Source: a virus (lineage: Duplodnaviria > Heunggongvirae > Uroviricota > Caudoviricetes). Taken from it: a stretch of DNA of 22,965 bases. The notes below the pieces were generated by a model. The model had not been told where the DNA came from. It saw only the letters and a list, made by a program, of their open reading frames with translations, and did no database searches. The stretch is from IMG/VR virus record IMGVR_UViG_3300045988_053025; one strand, written 5' to 3'. This document shows positions 7,634-22,965 of the stretch, piece after piece (the stretch's first letter is position 1; each line of letters opens with the position of its first letter). Made by a program: the position numbers and the translations under genes.

Positions 7634-8620
7634 ATGGCTGTTAAAGGCTTAACTGCGCTAACGCTGGCTGACTGGGGTAAGCGCGTCGATCCAAACGGGA
7701 AAGTCGATAAGATTATCGAGCTTCTCGGTCAAACTAACCCGATCCTTCAGGATATGCCCTTTGTCGAAGGGAACCTTCCTACCGGACACCGAACCACCAT
7801 TCGTTCTGGTTTACCTTCAGCTACCTGGCGTTTGCTGAACTATGGCGTACAGCCAAGCAAATCAACCACAGTGCAGGTAACCGATTACGTTGGCATGCTG
7901 GAAACCTATGCTGAAGTCGATAAGTCACTGGCTGATCTGAACGGCAATACCGCTGAATTCCGCCTGTCTGAAGACCGCGCATTTATTGAAGCGATGAATC
8001 AGCAGATGGCGCAGACGCTGTTTTATGGTGATTCCAGCGTTAACCCTCAGCAGTTTATGGGACTGTCCTCCCGCTATTCCAGCCTGTCTGCGGGTAATGC
8101 TCAGAACATCATTGATGCTGGTGGCACGGGTACAGATAACACCTCAATCTGGTTAGTGGTGTGGGGCGAAAACACCGTGCATGGCATCTTCCCGAAAGGG
8201 CAGAAGGCTGGCATCCAGATGGAAGATAAAGGCCAGGTGACACTGGAAGATGCTAATGGCGGCAAGTACGAAGGCTATCGCACCCATTACAAATGGGATA
8301 ACGGACTTGCTCTGCGTGACTGGCGTTATGTTGTTCGCATTGCAAACATCGATGTCAGCAATCTTTCAGAACCATCCTCTGCCGCAAATATTGCGAAGTT
8401 GATGGTTAAAGCACTACATCGCATTCCAAACCGTGGCATGGGCCGCCCGGTGTTCTACATGAACCGCACTGTAGGCCAGGCTCTTGATCTGCAATCTCTG
8501 GAGAAAACATCTCTGGCGATCAGCGTAAAAGAGACAGAAGGAGAGTGGTGGACTTCATTCCGTGGTGTACCAATCCGTGAAACTGATGCGCTTCTGGAAA
8601 CAGAAGCCCGCGTGGTGTAA
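7634..8620 (+). CDS. major capsid protein
   Basis: About 328 aa, directly after the scaffold gene. Start taken at ATG 7634, which has better spacing to GAGGA (7622-7626) than ATG 7628. Followed by a stem-loop. Confidence 0.7.
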   Translation: MAVKGLTALTLADWGKRVDPNGKVDKIIELLGQTNPILQDMPFVEGNLPTGHRTTIRSGLPSATWRLLNYGVQPSKSTTVQVTDYVGMLETYAEVDKSLADLNGNTAEFRLSEDRAFIEAMNQQMAQTLFYGDSSVNPQQFMGLSSRYSSLSAGNAQNIIDAGGTGTDNTSIWLVVWGENTVHGIFPKGQKAGIQMEDKGQVTLEDANGGKYEGYRTHYKWDNGLALRDWRYVVRIANIDVSNLSEPSSAANIAKLMVKALHRIPNRGMGRPVFYMNRTVGQALDLQSLEKTSLAISVKETEGEWWTSFRGVPIRETDALLETEARVV

Positions 8621-16314: not shown

Positions 16315-19300
16315 TGCCAGTTTATGCACAAGCTGAAGATCTTAATAACGGACTGATCCCGTCAGGTAATGTTTTGCCGGAACAAACTGGGTTTGATGTT
16401 GCCCTTCCGGAAGGGGCTAATCCTGAGCCATTGCCACCGGAGCCTTCCGTATGGGGGGCTGCAATGCGACAGAACAATATTCTGGCTGGTTTTTTCCGAC
16501 CAGCCAGACAGTTTGAACCGGTCGAAGGTTATAACCCATATGCTGATAAAAATGAGTTGCACGGTTATGAATACTGGGGGGCGAAATTTGCAGATTCCCG
16601 ATCGCCAGAGGAAACGGCGTGGATTAAGCAGCAGATAGATGATGAAAATGAAGACAGACGTTTATTGTCTGATGCTGGCGTAGTTGGAACCCTTGCCAGT
16701 ATTGCTGCGGGAATGGATCCGGTTACTGTTGCGTCAATGTTTATCCCCGGTGCTCAAGGAGGGGCACTGGCGCGTATTGGCTCACAGATTGCGATTGGTG
16801 CAGCCGGTACAGCATTAAGCGAGGTTGTGCTGAATAATCAGCAAATAACACGCTCATGGGGTGAAAGTGCCGCTCACATTGCAGCGGGTGCGATGATGAG
16901 CGGCGTGTTTGCCAGTGCTGGTGTTGCGCTTTCGCCATCCGTCCGGGCTGCAGCCACGCGTGAGGTTGCTGATGCTCTTGATAATATGAGCATTACATCA
17001 GCGACTGACAGGGCTGCCGCTTCGCTTTCTGATGGTGGTAGTGTTGGTGCTATGAAAATTGATACAGCGACTCTGGATGATTTAACCCCTGTTTCCGGTG
17101 GGGTGGTTGGAAAGGCTGCATGGAAAGCAGGGAGCTATCTTACTCCTTTGACAAGGTTAATGGAGTCTCCGTCCAAGACAGTGCGAAAAACAACGCTGGA
17201 GTTAGCCGAAAATAATTTCACCCTTAAAGGAAATGAAAGGGGGATTGAAACACCGGTAGCTGTAGAAACCCGTACACGTGGATGGCAGCGTGAAGAAGCT
17301 GCTGTTGTTGTCGGAAATAAACAGGCATACGCAAAGTATAAAGCTGATGGTGGTGACATGAGTTTTGATTCATTTCGTCAGCAGGTTGGGAATGCTATGC
17401 GAAGCGGTGATGTGCATGCTAATCCTGTTGTTCAGGAAACGGCGCAGGCGATGCGAACTGTATTAAATCGGGTGAAGGTTGAAATGCAAAAGCTTGGTTT
17501 ATTGCCGCCAGATGAAGAACTGAAAGCATTAGGCCAGGCAAGCTATTTCCCACGTATATATAAAGTTGGAAAAATAATCAGTGAACGCGATAAATTTCGA
17601 CGTATTTTGGTTGACTGGTGGTCGAGAGGCAATAAAACACTGGATCCTGAGGATGCTGAAATTGCAGCGGATATCGTAATTAATAAAATTACTGGTGCTA
17701 AGGTTCCACAGGATTTTGTCAGCGTATTTTCTGTAAAAGCCGCAGGTAGTACGAAAGAAAGAACATTAAATGTGCCTGATAGTCTTATCAGGGATTATCT
17801 CGAAAGTGATGTGAATTACGTTCTACAACGTCATATCCGTGAAGCGGCAGCAGAAATTGAGTTGACGAGAACATTTGGCAAACGAACTATGACAGAGCGT
17901 CTGCAATTAATTGAGGACGAATATGACAGTCTGTTACGGGAAGTGCCTGAAAAAATAAAGGCGAAATATGACGAAAGTGTGGCAAATCTGAAAGCACGTT
18001 ATGAGAGCAATGGTGAAGTTGTTCCTCAGGGTAAACTCGATTCATTAATGCGAAAGTACGAAAAGGAATTACGGAAAGAACAGTCCAGACTTTCAAAATC
18101 AAGAGCAAATGATCTCAGAGACATAACAGCATTACGCGATCGTCTTGTTGGTACATATGGTATGCCTGATGACCCGTCTTCGTTTTTTGTTCGTGCTGGC
18201 GCTTTTCTGCGGGATGTGAACTTCACGACCAAACTCGGTGGAATGACAGTATCAGCTATTCCAGATCTGGCCAGAGGGGTTATGGTTAATGGTTTCCGTA
18301 ACTCCATGAAAGGCTATGCTTCTCAGATATCCCAATCACCGGCATTTAAGGCCAGCAAAGAAGAGATGTTGAAGATGGGGATTGGATTGGAAACTGTACT
18401 ACATTCACGTTCTCGTGCAATTGGTGATCTTGTTGACAGTTCTTCCAGGACAACAGCAGTCGAAGCAGGAATGGAGCGAATTACTGATGCCTTCGGCAAG
18501 CTGACACTCATGGATCGATTTAATGACATAAACAAATCCATGAACGGAATGCTCACGTCAGACGGTATTTTGTCTGGTGCGTTTTCTGCACGTCGCATGG
18601 CAAAACTCGGTATCAACGACAATATGGCTGCGCGTATTCGCAGTGAGTTCGAGAAACATGGTGAGGTAATTGATGGATGGCACATTGGTAACTTTGATAA
18701 ATGGGACGATCAGTACGTTGCCGGAGTATTCCAGTCAGCGGTTCTGAAAGACGTTAATAACACTATCATCACCCCCGGTATTGGTGACACACCTTTATGG
18801 GCGAGTACTCCAATGGGGCGAACGATATTTCAGTTTAAATCATTCACAACGGCTTCATACAACCGTGCGCTACTTGGTGGGTTACAGGAAGGAACTGCGC
18901 AATTTTATTATGGCACTGCATTTCAGATTGCTCTTGGCTCACTGGTCTATGCGCTTAAAGAAGCATCGAAAGGGAAAAATGTTGACTGGTCACCAGAGAA
19001 GCTGGTGCTTGAGGGTATAGATAGATCCGGTATTCTTGGGCCATTGATGGAATATAACAATATGGCTGAAAAGGCTACTGGTGGTGCTGTTGGGCTGGGG
19101 GCTTTATTTGGCACTGGCACACAGTCTAGGTATGCCAGTCGTGGATTCGTAGGATCTCTATTCGGACCGTCATTTGGTCTTGCGGATAGCATCATTGATG
19201 TGACCGCAGGAGTGTTGAATGGTGATGCCGGTGATCGTATTGTGCATAATGTCCGAACCCTGATACCCGGCAATAACCTGTTCTGGATTGCGCCACTAAT

Positions 19301-19328
19301 AAACCAGGTGGATCCGGTGATGCGGTGA
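16314..19328 (+). CDS. large internal virion / ejection protein (1004 aa)
   Basis: Coupled to the upstream gene (TAATG at 16312-16316). Size and position match the large ejection proteins of short-tailed phages; Gly/Ala-rich hydrophobic N-terminal third. Confidence 0.65.
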   Translation: MPVYAQAEDLNNGLIPSGNVLPEQTGFDVALPEGANPEPLPPEPSVWGAAMRQNNILAGFFRPARQFEPVEGYNPYADKNELHGYEYWGAKFADSRSPEETAWIKQQIDDENEDRRLLSDAGVVGTLASIAAGMDPVTVASMFIPGAQGGALARIGSQIAIGAAGTALSEVVLNNQQITRSWGESAAHIAAGAMMSGVFASAGVALSPSVRAAATREVADALDNMSITSATDRAAASLSDGGSVGAMKIDTATLDDLTPVSGGVVGKAAWKAGSYLTPLTRLMESPSKTVRKTTLELAENNFTLKGNERGIETPVAVETRTRGWQREEAAVVVGNKQAYAKYKADGGDMSFDSFRQQVGNAMRSGDVHANPVVQETAQAMRTVLNRVKVEMQKLGLLPPDEELKALGQASYFPRIYKVGKIISERDKFRRILVDWWSRGNKTLDPEDAEIAADIVINKITGAKVPQDFVSVFSVKAAGSTKERTLNVPDSLIRDYLESDVNYVLQRHIREAAAEIELTRTFGKRTMTERLQLIEDEYDSLLREVPEKIKAKYDESVANLKARYESNGEVVPQGKLDSLMRKYEKELRKEQSRLSKSRANDLRDITALRDRLVGTYGMPDDPSSFFVRAGAFLRDVNFTTKLGGMTVSAIPDLARGVMVNGFRNSMKGYASQISQSPAFKASKEEMLKMGIGLETVLHSRSRAIGDLVDSSSRTTAVEAGMERITDAFGKLTLMDRFNDINKSMNGMLTSDGILSGAFSARRMAKLGINDNMAARIRSEFEKHGEVIDGWHIGNFDKWDDQYVAGVFQSAVLKDVNNTIITPGIGDTPLWASTPMGRTIFQFKSFTTASYNRALLGGLQEGTAQFYYGTAFQIALGSLVYALKEASKGKNVDWSPEKLVLEGIDRSGILGPLMEYNNMAEKATGGAVGLGALFGTGTQSRYASRGFVGSLFGPSFGLADSIIDVTAGVLNGDAGDRIVHNVRTLIPGNNLFWIAPLINQVDPVMR

Positions 19329-19339
19329 GTTAAACACCT

Positions 19340-19903
19340 TTAGCATGATTCAGGGGAAACCCCAATATTAAATATGAGTGTCTCCCCTGAATCAGCATAA
19401 TAATGTAATATTATTGACTTACGTTGTTTTCTTGCTTCGTAGAATAAACGCTCTTGCGGCGATAATTTGTGAAAACTGCCGGATGCACAATATATGTTTT
19501 TTAACTTTTCGCGGGTTTCTTTTATTGTATCTTCTGATATGTATTTTAGGTATTTATCCGTATAGATGTTGCTACTATAAGAAATTAATGTTTTGCTGTT
19601 GTTGTGATGTATTGTATTTTTATCGTTGAAGTCTGTATTTTTATTTACTGTCATTAGGTTTTTAATGATTACATGTAATACAATAGTCTCCCCATCATCA
19701 ATTCCATATTTGATGTCATAGTCAGTATATTTATTTGTTATACCGCTTCCTGATAGCGGCACTATGTACTCTGAGAAAAATGAGTTTGCCGCGTGACTAT
19801 CAAGAGCAATAGCAGTTTGTTTGTGGTAAAAATAAAACAATATTGAGAGAGTCAAAATAATAGCGACGCCTAATGCAACCTTTAATATAGATATGGTTTT
19901 CAA
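19340..19903 (-). CDS. membrane protein in AT-rich accessory operon (possible superinfection-exclusion protein)
   Basis: Minus-strand ORF 19340..19951. Start preferred at TTG 19903-19901 with AAGGAG (reverse complement of 19911-19916) 7 nt upstream, giving an N-terminal transmembrane segment KTISILKVALGVAIILTLSILFYFY. Visibly AT-rich with Asn/Lys/Ile-rich codons. It occupies the slot where P22 carries sieA, as I recall. Confidence 0.5.
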   Translation of the reverse strand: MKTISILKVALGVAIILTLSILFYFYHKQTAIALDSHAANSFFSEYIVPLSGSGITNKYTDYDIKYGIDDGETIVLHVIIKNLMTVNKNTDFNDKNTIHHNNSKTLISYSSNIYTDKYLKYISEDTIKETREKLKNIYCASGSFHKLSPQERLFYEARKQRKSIILHYYADSGETLIFNIGVSPESC

Positions 19904-19993
19904 AATATCGCTCCTTGTTGTAACATACATCAGTAATGTGGCGTTTTTCAATTGTATTAAAGACGTGTAATATGTACACGCCTTTTGTTCTTC

Positions 19994-20425
19994 CTATTCA
20001 GGTATTTCAATTCCAAAACCATCTGCATCCCATGAGTTTTCACAGATGATGTAACCTAGTTCATTGAGCTTATTAAATGTTTTTTCAAAGATGATCTGGT
20101 AATCATTATCTGCAAGTGATTCCAGTTCAAGGTCATTAAGGTTTATATAAAAACTTGTATGTCCAAGTGTTATTTTCTTATTAATTTCATTAAAGGTTCT
20201 TTTGAAAATAATATTTGATATTTCATGTCGTGCATTGTTTGCAATGATTTTTGCTTCATAAGCAGAAATTACGTCATCTTCATGAATATCTTTCAGAAAG
20301 CTGGTGTCAAGACGTTGTACTATTTCAGCGTTCATTGATCGCTTATTGGCTTTTGCAGAAATTTCTATTTTTTCTTTTACTTCGACGGGAAGTCTGATCC
20401 TTAGTTGTGGATCTTCTCTGCTCAT
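19994..20425 (-). CDS. mnt: Mnt-like ribbon-helix-helix repressor with extended C-terminal domain
   Basis: From ATG 20425-20423 the N-terminus MSREDPQLRIRLPVEVKEKIEISAKANKRSMNAEIVQRL aligns well with the P22 Mnt N-terminus as I recall it (ARDDPHFNFRMPMEVREKLKFRAEANGRSMNSELLQIV). The protein is about 143 aa with a ~100-residue C-terminal extension of unknown function. Divergent from the arc-like gene. Confidence 0.6.
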   Translation of the reverse strand: MSREDPQLRIRLPVEVKEKIEISAKANKRSMNAEIVQRLDTSFLKDIHEDDVISAYEAKIIANNARHEISNIIFKRTFNEINKKITLGHTSFYINLNDLELESLADNDYQIIFEKTFNKLNELGYIICENSWDADGFGIEIPE

Positions 20426-20481
20426 GTTCTTCACCAAATATTGAGTTACTTGCAATGATTGAAGTATGCCTCACCGTGTGC

Positions 20482-20510
20482 TTGACATCAATGACGCACG
20501 GTGTGACAAT
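20482..20510 (+). promoter_or_regulatory. sigma70-type promoter for the arc-like/ant operon
   Basis: Perfect -35 TTGACA (20482-20487), 17-bp spacer, extended -10 TGtGACAAT (20502-20510). CACGGTG-type motifs flank and overlap it. Confidence 0.45.
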
Positions 20511-20516
20511 TATTTT

Positions 20517-20531
20517 GCCCCACGGTGGGGC
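20517..20531. promoter_or_regulatory. operator-like inverted repeat GCCCCAC-g-GTGGGGC
   Basis: 15-bp near-perfect palindrome between the putative -10 and the RBS (AAGGAG 20533-20538) of the arc-like gene. The 12-mer GCCCCACGGTGG recurs at 20723-20734. Confidence 0.45.
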
Positions 20532-20545
20532 TAAGGAGATATGAA

Positions 20546-20713
20546 ATGCAAAAAGCAAAAGAGATGTGTCAACGACGAGTTCGTTTTCCGGACGATGTGA
20601 AGTTAGCTATTGAAAGAAATGGCGAAAAAGAATGCCGAAAGTTCAATACAGAGATTATCTATCAGCTGAGGAAAGTGTATGGACTCACTGGTGAGAAGAA
20701 TAGCGTGGCATAA
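20546..20713 (+). CDS. arc: Arc-like ribbon-helix-helix repressor (55 aa)
   Basis: ATG 20546 with AAGGAG 7 nt upstream. The sequence RRVRFPDDVKLAIERNGEKECRKFNTEIIYQLRKVY resembles P22 Arc as I recall it. Small, directly upstream of the ant-like gene and divergent from the mnt-like gene. Confidence 0.55.
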   Translation: MQKAKEMCQRRVRFPDDVKLAIERNGEKECRKFNTEIIYQLRKVYGLTGEKNSVA

Positions 20714-20719
20714 AACAGC

Positions 20720-20752
20720 GAAGCCCCACGGTGGCCAGACCGTCAGGGCTTC
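20720..20752 (+). promoter_or_regulatory. second operator-like site inside a stem-loop between the arc-like and ant-like genes
   Basis: GAAGCCC (20720-20726) pairs with GGGCTTC (20746-20752), enclosing GCCCCACGGTGGCC, a repeat of the motif at 20517. Confidence 0.35.
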
Positions 20753-20785
20753 AGTATCGTAAAACTACGTATAGGAATTAACGAC

Positions 20786-21721
20786 ATGACGAGTATAGCA
20801 ACAGCAGTATCTACTATCAACGTGCCATTCCACGGCGCAGAGCTTTATGTTGTCAATCACAACGGCGAACCGTATACCCCAATGAAACCTATCGTTGAGG
20901 GAATGGGGCTAGACTGGAAATCTCAACATAAGAAGATTTCTCAACGCTTCTCGAAGGGTATGGTGGAAATCACCATACCTTCTGCCGGTGGGGTGCAAGC
21001 CATGATTTGTATGGCTTTACGAAAATTGGCAGCTTGGTTGAACAGCATCAGCCCTAACAAAGTCCGCCCTGAAATCCGCGACAAGGTAATCCAGTATCAG
21101 GAAGAGTGTGACGATGTGCTCTACGAGTACTGGACTAAAGGCCATGTGGTTAACCCACGCAAAGCTAAAAAGGCGTTGCCGGGTAAAATAACAACTGAAC
21201 AGCAGGAAGCCATTAAACAACTCGTCATGAGTCGCGGTCAGTCTCTGCCAAAAGAAAAACAGGCTAAGGCGATGATCACCATGTGGTCGTCACTGAAATC
21301 TCATTTTGGCTGTTCGTACAAAGAAATTGGTGAAGATCAATTTGCCGAAGCGTTGTCTCTTGTTGCTCGGGTTCCGCTTGAAGGGGAGTATCTCCCTGCT
21401 GGATCTGCATCAGAGAATGATGAAGTGGCAGTCAAGATGTTAGATGCGCTTCGTGAGGCAATTAAAACACAGACAAAATGTTATGGTTATCCATTGAAGC
21501 CAGGCTACCGCAGTCTGATTCATTCGCCGTCGGGTGTTCTCGGCCTGACGGAGAACTCACTGCTGATGAATCTGCTGAACCAGTTACAGGACGGGCACGA
21601 TGTATCGGGCGCGGCGGCGGAGCTGACCACCATGTTCTGCTACATCGTCGGTGTGAGCAAATGCCTGCGTGATATCCAGACGCACGCGGAATACATCAAC
21701 GACAAAGCAGGGTTCTTCTGA
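20786..21721 (+). CDS. ant: phage antirepressor (Ant-like)
   Basis: 311 aa; N-terminal VPFHGAELYVVNHNGEPYTPMKPIVEGMGLDW fits the antirepressor / Bro-N-type pattern as I recall it. Sits downstream of the arc-like gene in a P22 immI-like arrangement. Its 3' end is duplicated in inverted orientation at the right edge of the window. Confidence 0.6.
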   Translation: MTSIATAVSTINVPFHGAELYVVNHNGEPYTPMKPIVEGMGLDWKSQHKKISQRFSKGMVEITIPSAGGVQAMICMALRKLAAWLNSISPNKVRPEIRDKVIQYQEECDDVLYEYWTKGHVVNPRKAKKALPGKITTEQQEAIKQLVMSRGQSLPKEKQAKAMITMWSSLKSHFGCSYKEIGEDQFAEALSLVARVPLEGEYLPAGSASENDEVAVKMLDALREAIKTQTKCYGYPLKPGYRSLIHSPSGVLGLTENSLLMNLLNQLQDGHDVSGAAAELTTMFCYIVGVSKCLRDIQTHAEYINDKAGFF

Positions 21722-21745
21722 CAGAACGGCGGCACAGGGACGTGC
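21590..21745 (+). repeat. inverted repeat, left arm (3' end of ant plus ~24 bp downstream)
   Basis: Reverse complement of 22811..22965 matches 21590..21745 with 4 mismatches across the 132 coding nt, all synonymous, plus a short indel in the 3' flank. The repeat probably continues beyond the window. Confidence 0.85.
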
Positions 21746-21759
21746 AAAACGAAACTAGC

Positions 21760-21771
21760 GTGACATGTCAC
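21760..21771. repeat. 12-bp perfect palindrome GTGACATGTCAC, copy 3
   Basis: Read directly; immediately 5' of the terminator hairpin downstream of ant. Confidence 0.9.
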
Positions 21772-21796
21772 AGGCCGCTTTCGCGGCCTTGTTTTT
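21772..21796 (+). terminator. rho-independent terminator downstream of ant
   Basis: AGGCCGC-TTTC-GCGGCCT hairpin followed by TGTTTTT; overlaps the stop of the minus-strand small ORF. Confidence 0.65.
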
Positions 21797-21956
21797 AACG
21801 AATGCCACCGCCACCCGGGCGGGAATCCGCAGAACGCCCACCGCAGCGGGAGCCGTCAGCGGCAGTATCGCTGTCGTGCTGACAACGACCGGCAAAGGCC
21901 TGAGTTGAAGCTACCAGAGACAACAAAACGAACAGTGCAGCAAATGCTTTTTTCAT
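21795..21956 (-). CDS. small secreted peptide (53 aa) with signal peptide
   Basis: From ATG 21956-21954 the translation is MKKAFAALFVLLSLVASTQAFA|GRCQHDSDTAADGSRCGGRSADSRPGGGGIR: basic N-region, hydrophobic core, AxA cleavage motif, mature part with two Cys and a Gly-rich tail. The longer ORF-track start (GTG 22028) abuts a terminator and lacks an RBS. Confidence 0.4.
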   Translation of the reverse strand: MKKAFAALFVLLSLVASTQAFAGRCQHDSDTAADGSRCGGRSADSRPGGGGIR

Positions 21957-22028
21957 TGTGAAATTTCCATCTATAAGCCACCTCAATGTGGCGTCAATGA
22001 GTGTAGCACTGACTTTTGTTTCGTCCAC

Positions 22029-22049
22029 AAAAAAGCCCGCGCTGCGGGC
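22029..22049 (-). terminator. rho-independent terminator for the 210-aa gene (minus strand)
   Basis: GCCCGC-GCT-GCGGGC hairpin (22035-22049) followed on the minus strand by a 6-nt T run (plus-strand A run 22029-22034), 5 nt past the TAA at 22057-22055. Confidence 0.65.
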
Positions 22050-22054
22050 TTCTA

Positions 22055-22687
22055 TTAATGCAGTTTATCTTTGCTTATAACCAGTAGTCTGTGGGTATGC
22101 ACATCTTTATCACTGCCCCAACAGAAATCAGCCCACTGGCTATAGAAATCATCCCATGATGCCATGAAGCTAAGAGGTCTATCTTCTTCAGAGCCATCTG
22201 AAACGTATACATTATATCCTGGGGTGTTTATAGCCCAAGAAATCATTCTTTCCCAGAATCTTCTCCCATCGATTGTTTGTTGCTCATCAGATACAACGAT
22301 CGCATATTGCTCTAGGAAGAACTGAAAAAAAATCTGAGGCAAACCATGAACAGCACGGTCATGAATAACATTAGGCGTACGCCATACCATGATCTGCGTA
22401 CATGTTCTTTTGGCTTCGACGATATCTTCCCGAAAGATTAACTTAACCGCATACACCGTTTCTGGAGTATCGCTGGTAGTAATCATTCTGTAATGATCGC
22501 CATTACAAGATTTTACAAGGCGATAACCATAAGGTGTTGTGAATCCCGGAAGAACGAAATCAACCACACCTTTCGCTAAGTAGCTTTCGGTGTGACTAGT
22601 GTTCTTCTCAGACATGTTCAGTTTTCTATCGAAATCTGCTTCTGGGATAATGTATGGCATCGCTTTTCTTGTTGTATTTGTTCTCAT
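22055..22687 (-). CDS. hypothetical protein (210 aa), orphan accessory gene with own promoter and terminator
   Basis: ATG 22687-22685 with GGAGG 5 nt upstream on the minus strand, a candidate promoter upstream and an intrinsic terminator downstream. Trp/Phe/Asp-rich C-terminal half; no family recognised. Confidence 0.6.
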   Translation of the reverse strand: MRTNTTRKAMPYIIPEADFDRKLNMSEKNTSHTESYLAKGVVDFVLPGFTTPYGYRLVKSCNGDHYRMITTSDTPETVYAVKLIFREDIVEAKRTCTQIMVWRTPNVIHDRAVHGLPQIFFQFFLEQYAIVVSDEQQTIDGRRFWERMISWAINTPGYNVYVSDGSEEDRPLSFMASWDDFYSQWADFCWGSDKDVHTHRLLVISKDKLH

Positions 22688-22760
22688 TTCGTCCTCCCAT
22701 GTTTGGCTACAGGACGCGTTTTGAAGGGAAGATTAAAAATGCTTTCTTACCCTTGAGGTA

Positions 22761-22789
22761 ATAGTACGCTATTCACCCCCAGTCTGCAA
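22761..22789 (-). promoter_or_regulatory. candidate sigma70 promoter for the 210-aa gene
   Basis: On the minus strand: -35 TTGCAG (reverse complement of 22784-22789), 17-bp spacer, -10 TACTAT (reverse complement of 22761-22766), about 70 nt upstream of the ATG. Confidence 0.35.
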
Positions 22790-22833
22790 TCTGTACAGAA
22801 TTATTTAAAGGCACATCCCTGTGCCGCCGCCCG

Positions 22834-22965
22834 TCAGAAGAACCCTGCCTTGTCGTTGATGTACTCCGCGTGCGTCTGGATATCACGCAGGCATTTGCTC
22901 ACACCAACGATGTAGCAGAACATGGTGGTCAGCTCCGCCGCCGCGCCCGATACGTCGTGCCCGTC
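22834..22965 (-). CDS. antirepressor-like protein, C-terminal fragment (gene continues beyond window)
   Basis: Minus-strand frame encodes ...DGHDVSGAAAELTTMFCYIVGVSKCLRDIQTHAEYINDKAGFF then stop (reverse complement of 22834-22836), identical in protein sequence to the last 43 residues of the ant-like gene at 20786..21721. All four nucleotide differences are synonymous. Confidence 0.55.
   Translation of the reverse strand, partial: DGHDVSGAAAELTTMFCYIVGVSKCLRDIQTHAEYINDKAGFF

Follow-up and report, generated by a model that had tools for sequence, protein, structure and literature searches.

The gene for a 210-amino acid (aa) protein, encoded on the minus strand of a 22,965-nucleotide (nt) stretch of DNA from a virus of the class Caudoviricetes (IMG/VR record IMGVR_UViG_3300045988_053025; hereafter, the window), is a widely conserved, exchangeable, dispensable accessory gene of an Escherichia coli prophage, that is, a "moron," at a module junction. 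The gene is real, is subject to purifying selection, is carried as replaceable cargo in a slot between two antirepressor (ant) genes, and has no conserved partner gene. The explanation we favor, to which we assign a probability of roughly 0.55, is that its product is a stand-alone cytoplasmic protein with a divergent fold resembling that of the GCN5-related N-acetyltransferases (GNAT), for which modification of a target using acyl-coenzyme A (acyl-CoA) is the likeliest mechanism.

The exchangeability of the gene is apparent from comparison with related prophages. Over 92% of its length, the window shares 97.6% identity with phage TL-2011b, and it is therefore recognized as a podovirus prophage of the epsilon15/phiV10 type. 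The two sequences are collinear up to position 22050, the terminator included, and again from position 22747, which is located 15 nt downstream of the −10 hexamer of the promoter candidate. Between these points, TL-2011b carries a gene of the YafO toxin family (Pfam YafO_toxin, E-value 8e-6) preceded by an overlapping 59-aa open reading frame (ORF) (gp44/gp45). The elements of the slot, and of the cargo found in the window, are the following:

22055..22687, minus strand: the 210-aa ORF, which belongs to PHROG 1349 and is predicted to adopt a divergent GNAT-like fold
22051..22746, minus strand: the exchangeable cargo (5′ untranslated region (UTR), ribosome-binding site and ORF), delimited by blastn breakpoints against TL-2011b and three Escherichia coli prophages
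22693..22697, minus strand: the Shine-Dalgarno motif GGAGG, 5 nt ahead of the ATG of the 210-aa ORF, as read from the sequence
22029..22053, minus strand: an intrinsic terminator that is kept in all cargo variants examined
22761..22789, minus strand: a weak sigma-70-like promoter candidate, TTGCAG-17-TACTAT, found in the sequence and regarded as part of the slot, not of the gene

The flanks of the slot were detected in 499 of the 5,426 complete E. coli genomes, with the 210-aa cargo present in 93, including strains of Shiga toxin-producing E. coli and extraintestinal pathogenic E. coli. The other cargoes belong to at least five types: the YafO-like pair, a DUF4760 protein, a pair of 125-aa and 72-aa proteins, a pair of 147-aa and 55-aa proteins, and DUF2335 proteins. 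In all four alternative-cargo variants that were mapped, homology with the window ends at 22050/22051; it resumes at 22742–22749 in three of these (TL-2011b and the variants with the DUF4760 and 125+72-aa cargoes), that is, 12–19 nt downstream of the −10 hexamer, and at 22800 in the fourth. The promoter region and the terminator can therefore be assigned to the slot, whereas the unit that is exchanged consists of the 5′ UTR, the ribosome-binding site, and the ORF. The copy in the lambdoid phage LLS, which has only positions 22055–22724 in common with the window (76% nucleotide identity), is consistent with this delineation. An earlier examination of the same DNA without database searches (hereafter, the sequence-only reading) had proposed an autonomous accessory gene at a module junction, and the retention of the flanks around different cargo in TL-2011b bears this out.

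The signals proposed for expression of the gene were partly confirmed. The ORF (22687..22055) starts with an ATG, is preceded by the ribosome-binding site that had been called strong, and corresponds to a coding sequence annotated by RefSeq in other genomes. The terminator predicted for the gene is indeed present: directly after the TAA stop codon (22057–22055), there is a hairpin (22053–22031) with a 10-bp stem, a GCCCGC/GCGGGC core, and a 3-nt loop, with a U-tract at 22034–22029, and its folding energy of −16.7 kcal/mol (z = −3.56 against dinucleotide shuffles) is that of a strong terminator. A consensus terminator scan missed this hairpin, probably because the scan prolongs the stem into the T-run. 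The promoter held up only in part. Both hexamers, TTGCAG (22789–22784) and TACTAT (22766–22761), are where they had been placed, but they match the consensus at 7 of 12 positions (3/6 and 4/6), below the threshold of a scan that recorded no promoters in 21600–22965, against 1.9 expected by chance. The best argument that this weak promoter may matter is an indirect one: the stretch is kept in three of the four alternative-cargo variants, with cargo breakpoints that cluster just 3′ of the −10 hexamer. Directly next to the −35 hexamer, positions 22790–22799 form a perfect 10-bp palindrome, TCTGTACAGA; it lies within the part of the slot that is conserved between cargo variants and could be an operator. 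Besides the promoter region, the 145 nt upstream of the 210-aa ORF contain a single ORF, which encodes 37 aa and overlaps the upstream antirepressor gene (ant2) out of frame.

The characterization of the protein as an orphan did not survive database searches. The protein matches PHROG 1349 (function unknown) over its full length with an E-value of 1e-112, and a word-indexed protein search produced 63 homologues, with 37–99% identity, across the Enterobacterales (Escherichia, Enterobacter, Klebsiella, Raoultella, Serratia, Yersinia, Pectobacterium, Dickeya, Photorhabdus, Xenorhabdus, Providencia, Plesiomonas, and others), all of which go by the names "hypothetical" or "phage protein" and lack Pfam domains. 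An exhaustive profile search expanded the family to 924 clusters at 50% identity (E ≤ 1e-3), 277 of these at E ≤ 1e-10, with nearly all members being about 200 aa long. The exact 210-aa sequence was seen on 218 contigs, and more than 1,000 carry close variants. Pairwise ratios of nonsynonymous to synonymous substitution rates (dN/dS) of 0.05–0.24 in five lineages indicate purifying selection.

The prediction of an undescribed function was supported. The 210-aa protein produced no match to Pfam at E ≤ 1, no match to NCBIfam, and no match to any family of PADLOC-DB v2 at E ≤ 1; its accession is absent from the supplementary text files of DefensePredictor; and no paper on the protein or its family was found. 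Searches of the Protein Data Bank (PDB) with two family profiles yielded chance matches only (de novo TIM barrels and ribosomal protein S6), and a second word-indexed search with a diverse profile recovered almost exclusively the proteins already found, none with an informative name. A weak match of one distant member (E = 0.08) to the T4 Mrh-like family (PF24070) was discarded because hhalign of the family profile gave probabilities of only 0.2% for T4 Mrh and 0.4% for ModA.3. None of the searches linked the protein with confidence to the structural or housekeeping proteins of phages, an outcome that the sequence-only reading had named as one that would refute it. The family domain also occurs in longer proteins. 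A 270-aa paralogue (P0150/P0217) found in E. coli, E. albertii, and E. fergusonii, on more than 217 contigs, combines it with a C-terminal DUF5397 (Pfam E = 2.5e-7), the small uncharacterized domain after which alone this protein is named by NCBI. Two metagenomic fusions join the family domain to a YgiT/MqsA-type zinc ribbon (P0154, E = 3e-20) and, weakly, to an SRA-like domain, a reader of modified DNA (P0136, E = 0.002); they are possible functional hints, but each was seen just once, on one contig, and neither was relied upon.

The fold of the 210-aa protein is predicted to be GNAT-like. An AlphaFold2 model built with 38 homologues has a mean pLDDT of 79.7 and a pTM of 0.77, with disorder confined to residues 1–10. 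Foldseek comparison of the model with PDB gave only weak matches (best E = 0.017, TM-scores of 0.3–0.4), the best of which are acetyltransferases, namely, AAC(2′) enzymes, Naa50, and the toxins KacT and AtaT; the structural neighbors include the C-terminal domain of Rv1916/ICL2 (8g8k), NatD/Naa40 (4ua3), AAC(2′)-Ia (5us1), and Hat1 (1bob). Among the viral models of BFVD, the top matches are uncharacterized phage proteins (E = 1e-10), followed by phage "NAT_SF domain" proteins and acyl-CoA N-acyltransferases of giant viruses (E from 4e-6 to 6e-4).

The conserved residues of the family point in the same direction. The statement that the protein contains no recognizable motif had to be abandoned: across 60 members with 23–49% identity, the best conserved polar positions are N29, Y79, Q98, R103, D134, Q137, T138, G141, and D164, and four of these, D134, Q137, T138, and G141, are conserved in 78–87% of the sequences. 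These four lie in the block S/T-D134-x-x-Q137-T138-x-x-G141-x-R143-F-W, which the model places at the junction between a strand (130–132) and a helix (139–154). In GNAT enzymes, motif A, Q/R-x-x-G-x-G/A, is the loop that binds the pyrophosphate of CoA at the β4–α3 junction. The predicted protein may resemble the GNAT superfamily in its conserved strand-loop-helix, with a glycine at the presumed place of the CoA pyrophosphate, and is likewise a single-domain, soluble protein of about 200 aa.

Several observations weigh against this assignment. The loop is non-canonical: the family reads Q-T-x-x-G-x-R, with an arginine for the expected glycine or alanine and, if Q137 is taken as the first position, with one extra residue. 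In the model, two helices are inserted before the presumed β4, and there are additional N-terminal strands, so that the order of elements is not that of a textbook GNAT, whose core runs β1-α1-α2-β2–4-α3-β5-α4-β6 and has a V-shaped cleft. The sequence profiles are also silent: neither the Pfam query, with GNAT profiles such as Acetyltransf_1/3/7/10, nor the PDB profile searches pointed to a GNAT, and the 25 listed weak Pfam matches over the 60 diverse members (E ≤ 5) include no acetyltransferase family. Given the non-canonical motif and the differing order of elements, we describe the protein as GNAT-like without counting it as an established member of the superfamily.

Under the favored explanation, the slot would supply the weak promoter and the strong terminator, and the cargo would bring its own 5′ UTR and ribosome-binding site. 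The protein would bind acyl-CoA through the conserved strand-loop-helix segment that includes D134–R143 and would pass the acyl group to an intracellular target. This target might be a protein of the host or of the phage, a substrate of the aminoacyl-tRNA or nucleotide-like kind, or a small molecule that is toxic. Acting alone, it could alter the physiology of the host or the outcome of a phage-host conflict. Acyl-CoA binding, catalysis, target, and any phenotype are all inferred here.

The distribution of the homologues is that of a gene without a partner. Clustering of neighbor genes, over 69 and subsequently over 135 loci, revealed no co-traveling gene, only lineage-specific synteny. In the lambdoid prophages of Enterobacter and in phage LLS, the homologue is located between Rz and the small terminase subunit. 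In siphovirus prophages of Serratia, it lies between a DUF6246 gene of the tail module and an Ant/Arc/tape-measure block, with a promoter-like site (9/12) and a terminator with a 9-bp stem of its own. In P1-like elements of Citrobacter, it is encoded opposite to tail genes, and in Yersinia pestis, it adjoins an Arc/Arc/Ant module. A specific link to antirepressor/Arc modules was considered and rejected: such neighbors are recurrent in three lineages, but were found at only 5 of 80 loci and do not amount to a rule.

Other copies are chromosomal and occupy ordinary neighborhoods, one site per genus: ppc-metF in Xenorhabdus, a phosphotransferase system operon and hda in Photorhabdus, a thiD-like gene and a permease gene in Proteus (six species), and MFS/MmyB-like genes and a nitroreductase gene in the Enterobacter group (about 15 species). 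With dN/dS of 0.05–0.09, these genus-wide fixed copies are under strong constraint, which fits a general cellular or detoxifying function. Relatives are also present in jumbo phages, namely, gp672 of Agrobacterium phage Atu_ph07 (hhalign probability against the family profile 98.9%, E = 1.6e-17) and a protein of Burkholderia phage BCSR5. In Atu_ph07 (locus L145, positions 2251–4970), gp672 is directly downstream of a COG3236 gene, which we take to represent the NADAR family, and two genes away from a gene annotated as "ADP-ribose 1-phosphate phosphatase-related," probably a macro-domain gene; this neighborhood looks like one for reversal of ADP-ribosylation.

Among the competing explanations, the one that fares best, although still improbable on balance, is anti-phage defense or superinfection exclusion, with the protein acylating a component of the incoming phage or of the host, or else triggering abortive infection; this would be a special case of the favored explanation. 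The slot is hypervariable, and its other cargoes comprise, besides the YafO-family toxin with the overlapping small ORF, two more two-gene modules resembling toxin-antitoxin systems. The gene also recurs in accessory-gene sites of unrelated prophages, in the Rz-terminase interval of lambdoid phages, beside immI in Serratia and Yersinia, and in P1-like elements, and the P0136 relative is fused to the SRA-like domain. However, that fusion is a solitary sequence; the PADLOC and DefensePredictor lookups were negative; and homologues are encoded by jumbo phages. The chromosomal copies are fixed and strongly constrained, and reside among housekeeping genes, not in defense islands, whereas defense genes are usually patchy in their distribution. 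The proposal of the sequence-only reading that the gene functions in superinfection exclusion or defense accordingly gained no support.

Somewhat less probable is a role in host takeover or counter-defense during lytic growth or induction, the protein being either an acyltransferase that inactivates a host immune protein or a non-catalytic binder. The jumbo-phage homologues, with gp672 located near the COG3236 gene and the probable macro-domain gene, are compatible with such a role, as is the co-directionality of the homologues with the late operon in lambdoid prophages. In the window, the gene is directly downstream of, and co-directional with, ant2, and the hairpin that follows ant2 is weak (−10.1 kcal/mol, z = −0.7), so that read-through from ant2 into the 210-aa gene, and hence co-expression at induction, is possible. 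By contrast, the combination of a slot promoter with a terminator immediately after the gene suggests autonomous expression, and chromosomal copies that have long been fixed outside prophages, under strong constraint in four host lineages, are hard to explain by host takeover.

There is little to recommend the view that the protein acetylates aminoacyl-tRNA as the toxic component of a toxin-antitoxin or abortive-infection module of the GNAT type. The known toxins of this kind (TacT, AtaT, ItaT, and KacT, with DUF1778 antitoxins) share with the 210-aa protein the GNAT-type fold class and carriage on mobile elements; KacT and AtaT are among the weak Foldseek matches; and the alternative cargo of TL-2011b is a toxin-family gene. 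Nevertheless, GNAT toxins are about 160–175 aa long, shorter than the 210-aa protein, which also gives no Pfam signal for GNAT or DUF1778. There is no antitoxin ORF on either side of the gene: no ORF of at least 30 aa occupies a frame-compatible position in 22688–22832, and no adjacent antitoxin gene of the ribbon-helix-helix or DUF1778 type, which in known systems usually lies upstream of the toxin gene and overlaps it, was found. The absence of an antitoxin gene makes a GNAT toxin unlikely, and the lack of a conserved neighbor across the 135 loci and the stable inheritance of single-copy chromosomal orthologues without partners point the same way. Finally, the idea that the ORF is spurious, or that it encodes a phage protein with a structural or housekeeping role, has only the position beside the virion and ejection-protein module in its favor. 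This idea is effectively refuted, and a structural role is excluded, by the absence of the gene from TL-2011b and from most of the roughly 500 sister prophages in which the flanks are retained, its presence at non-phage chromosomal sites, dN/dS far below 1, and hundreds of homologues.

The favored explanation, a stand-alone GNAT-like protein carried as slot cargo, can be placed next to several characterized systems. Well-known prophage morons and hotspots include bor and lom of lambda, sieA in the immI region of P22, and the P2/P4 defense hotspots (Rousset et al. 2022, PMC9122126). The cassette in the window resembles these in being a self-contained unit with a terminator and a candidate promoter, in its presence or absence among near-identical phages, in the replacement by unrelated cargo at fixed breakpoints, and, in lambdoid phages, in the location at the Rz-terminase junction. 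It differs in that the promoter and the terminator are owned by the slot, so that the UTR and ORF alone are exchanged, and in the position of the slot between two convergent ant genes with about 155–250 bp of common inverted 3′ sequence. A mechanistic analogy is offered by AcrVA5, reportedly a phage-encoded GNAT that acetylates and inactivates Cas12a and, like the 210-aa protein, the product of a small stand-alone accessory gene of mobile elements. Unlike AcrVA5, to which no sequence or structural match was seen, the 210-aa family is also fixed in bacterial chromosomes.

A moron-type architecture is in itself ordinary, and the family was already catalogued in PHROGs without a function. The present analysis assigns a predicted fold to a large dark family, points out its non-canonical cofactor loop, and describes both the anatomy of a slot with swappable cargo and a partner-less distribution over prophages, jumbo phages, and chromosomes. 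For about 900 unannotated clusters, the predicted fold together with lone action turns a hypothetical protein into a testable enzyme candidate. Prophages that are near-isogenic except for the cargo placed between a common promoter and a common terminator constitute a natural experiment, and comparison of the cargoes (the 210-aa gene, the YafO-like pair, DUF4760, and others) could show the selective pressure on the locus. If an immune or translational target is modified, an acylation-based mechanism would be added to phage-host conflict; if a small molecule is detoxified, this would be a phage-borne resistance function. A broader and distinctly speculative scenario is that PHROG 1349 and its relatives are an unrecognized class of single-protein effectors of phage-host conflict, acyltransferases with a non-canonical loop that would acylate a conserved cellular or immune target and would travel as promoterless UTR-plus-ORF cargo for ready-made slots. 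Such a class would represent a new mechanism of defense or counter-defense in temperate phages, jumbo phages, and several genera of Enterobacterales.

The surroundings of the slot include the following features:

20786..21721, plus strand: ant1, a P22_AR_N-type antirepressor gene (Pfam PF10547, E = 6e-45), convergent with the cassette
21590..21745, plus strand: left arm of an inverted repeat, comprising the 3′ end of ant1 and a downstream hairpin (repeat search)
22811..22965, minus strand: right arm of the inverted repeat, comprising the 3′ end of the second, Bro-N-type ant gene and a hairpin (repeat search)
21795..21956, minus strand: a 53-aa protein that matches PHROG 14503/3117 and carries a predicted signal peptide, encoded downstream of the 210-aa gene

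The description of the cassette as ant-flanked is accurate. ant2, a minus-strand gene, continues beyond the end of the window, and its counterparts in matching genomes carry Bro-N or Ant annotations; the arms of the inverted repeat, which are 95–97% complementary, are the common 3′ ends of the two convergent ant genes. The common sequence spans at least 155 bp and about 250 bp in full-length copies. The assertion that the 210-aa gene is transcribed against its neighbors applies to one side only: transcription of the gene runs toward that of ant1 and the structural module, but in the same direction as that of ant2 and the 53-aa gene. The junction between ant1 and the cassette seen in the window was found in only 8 complete genomes; ant1 is absent from most carriers of the slot, which consequently lack the inverted repeat. 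In one genome, that of E. coli SCU-387 (locus L003, positions 5569–8286), the whole cassette is flipped relative to the phage backbone, which suggests inversion by recombination across the inverted 3′ ends of the ant genes.

The 53-aa protein (WP_000708858.1) has a tail rich in Gly, Arg, and Cys, PHROG 14503 is labeled "membrane associated protein," and a possible promoter, TTGACG-16-TATAGA, was spotted by eye ahead of the gene. The same protein adjoins the DUF4760, 125+72-aa, and 147+55-aa cargoes, and a gene of the same size occupies this position in TL-2011b; as the 53-aa gene remains constant while the cargo changes, it is not a specific partner of the 210-aa gene. The YafO cassette of TL-2011b occupies the identical slot, with the same promoter region, terminator, and downstream 53-aa gene, and differs in being a two-gene module that encodes an unrelated protein.

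Farther from the slot, an Rfam scan of 19000–22965 identified only the sar RNA (RF00262; 20717–20784, minus strand; 44.8 bits against a gathering score of 43), with no hit in the cassette. This RNA lies between an Arc-like gene (20525–20713) and ant1, and its presence shows that this epsilon15-type phage has a complete P22-style immI module, including the antisense regulator of ant. Another feature is an island of low GC content (19340–20455, minus strand; 30–33% GC against about 45–47% in the neighboring phage DNA), which encodes a 153-aa protein with an N-terminal Arc domain, in an Mnt-like position, and a 203-aa protein with an N-terminal hydrophobic segment that belongs to PHROG 8033 (function unknown) and has a weak ThsB/TIR-like PADLOC match (E = 0.006). 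The 203-aa gene occupies the place of sieA in P22 and may be at least the equal of the 210-aa gene as a candidate for defense or exclusion. In the sister prophage of E. coli M9682-C1 (locus L006, positions 3126–3410), right beside the slot, there is an odd pairing: an ORF for a DUF1778 protein, the family to which the antitoxins of GNAT toxins belong, overlaps the BRO-N antirepressor gene at its start.

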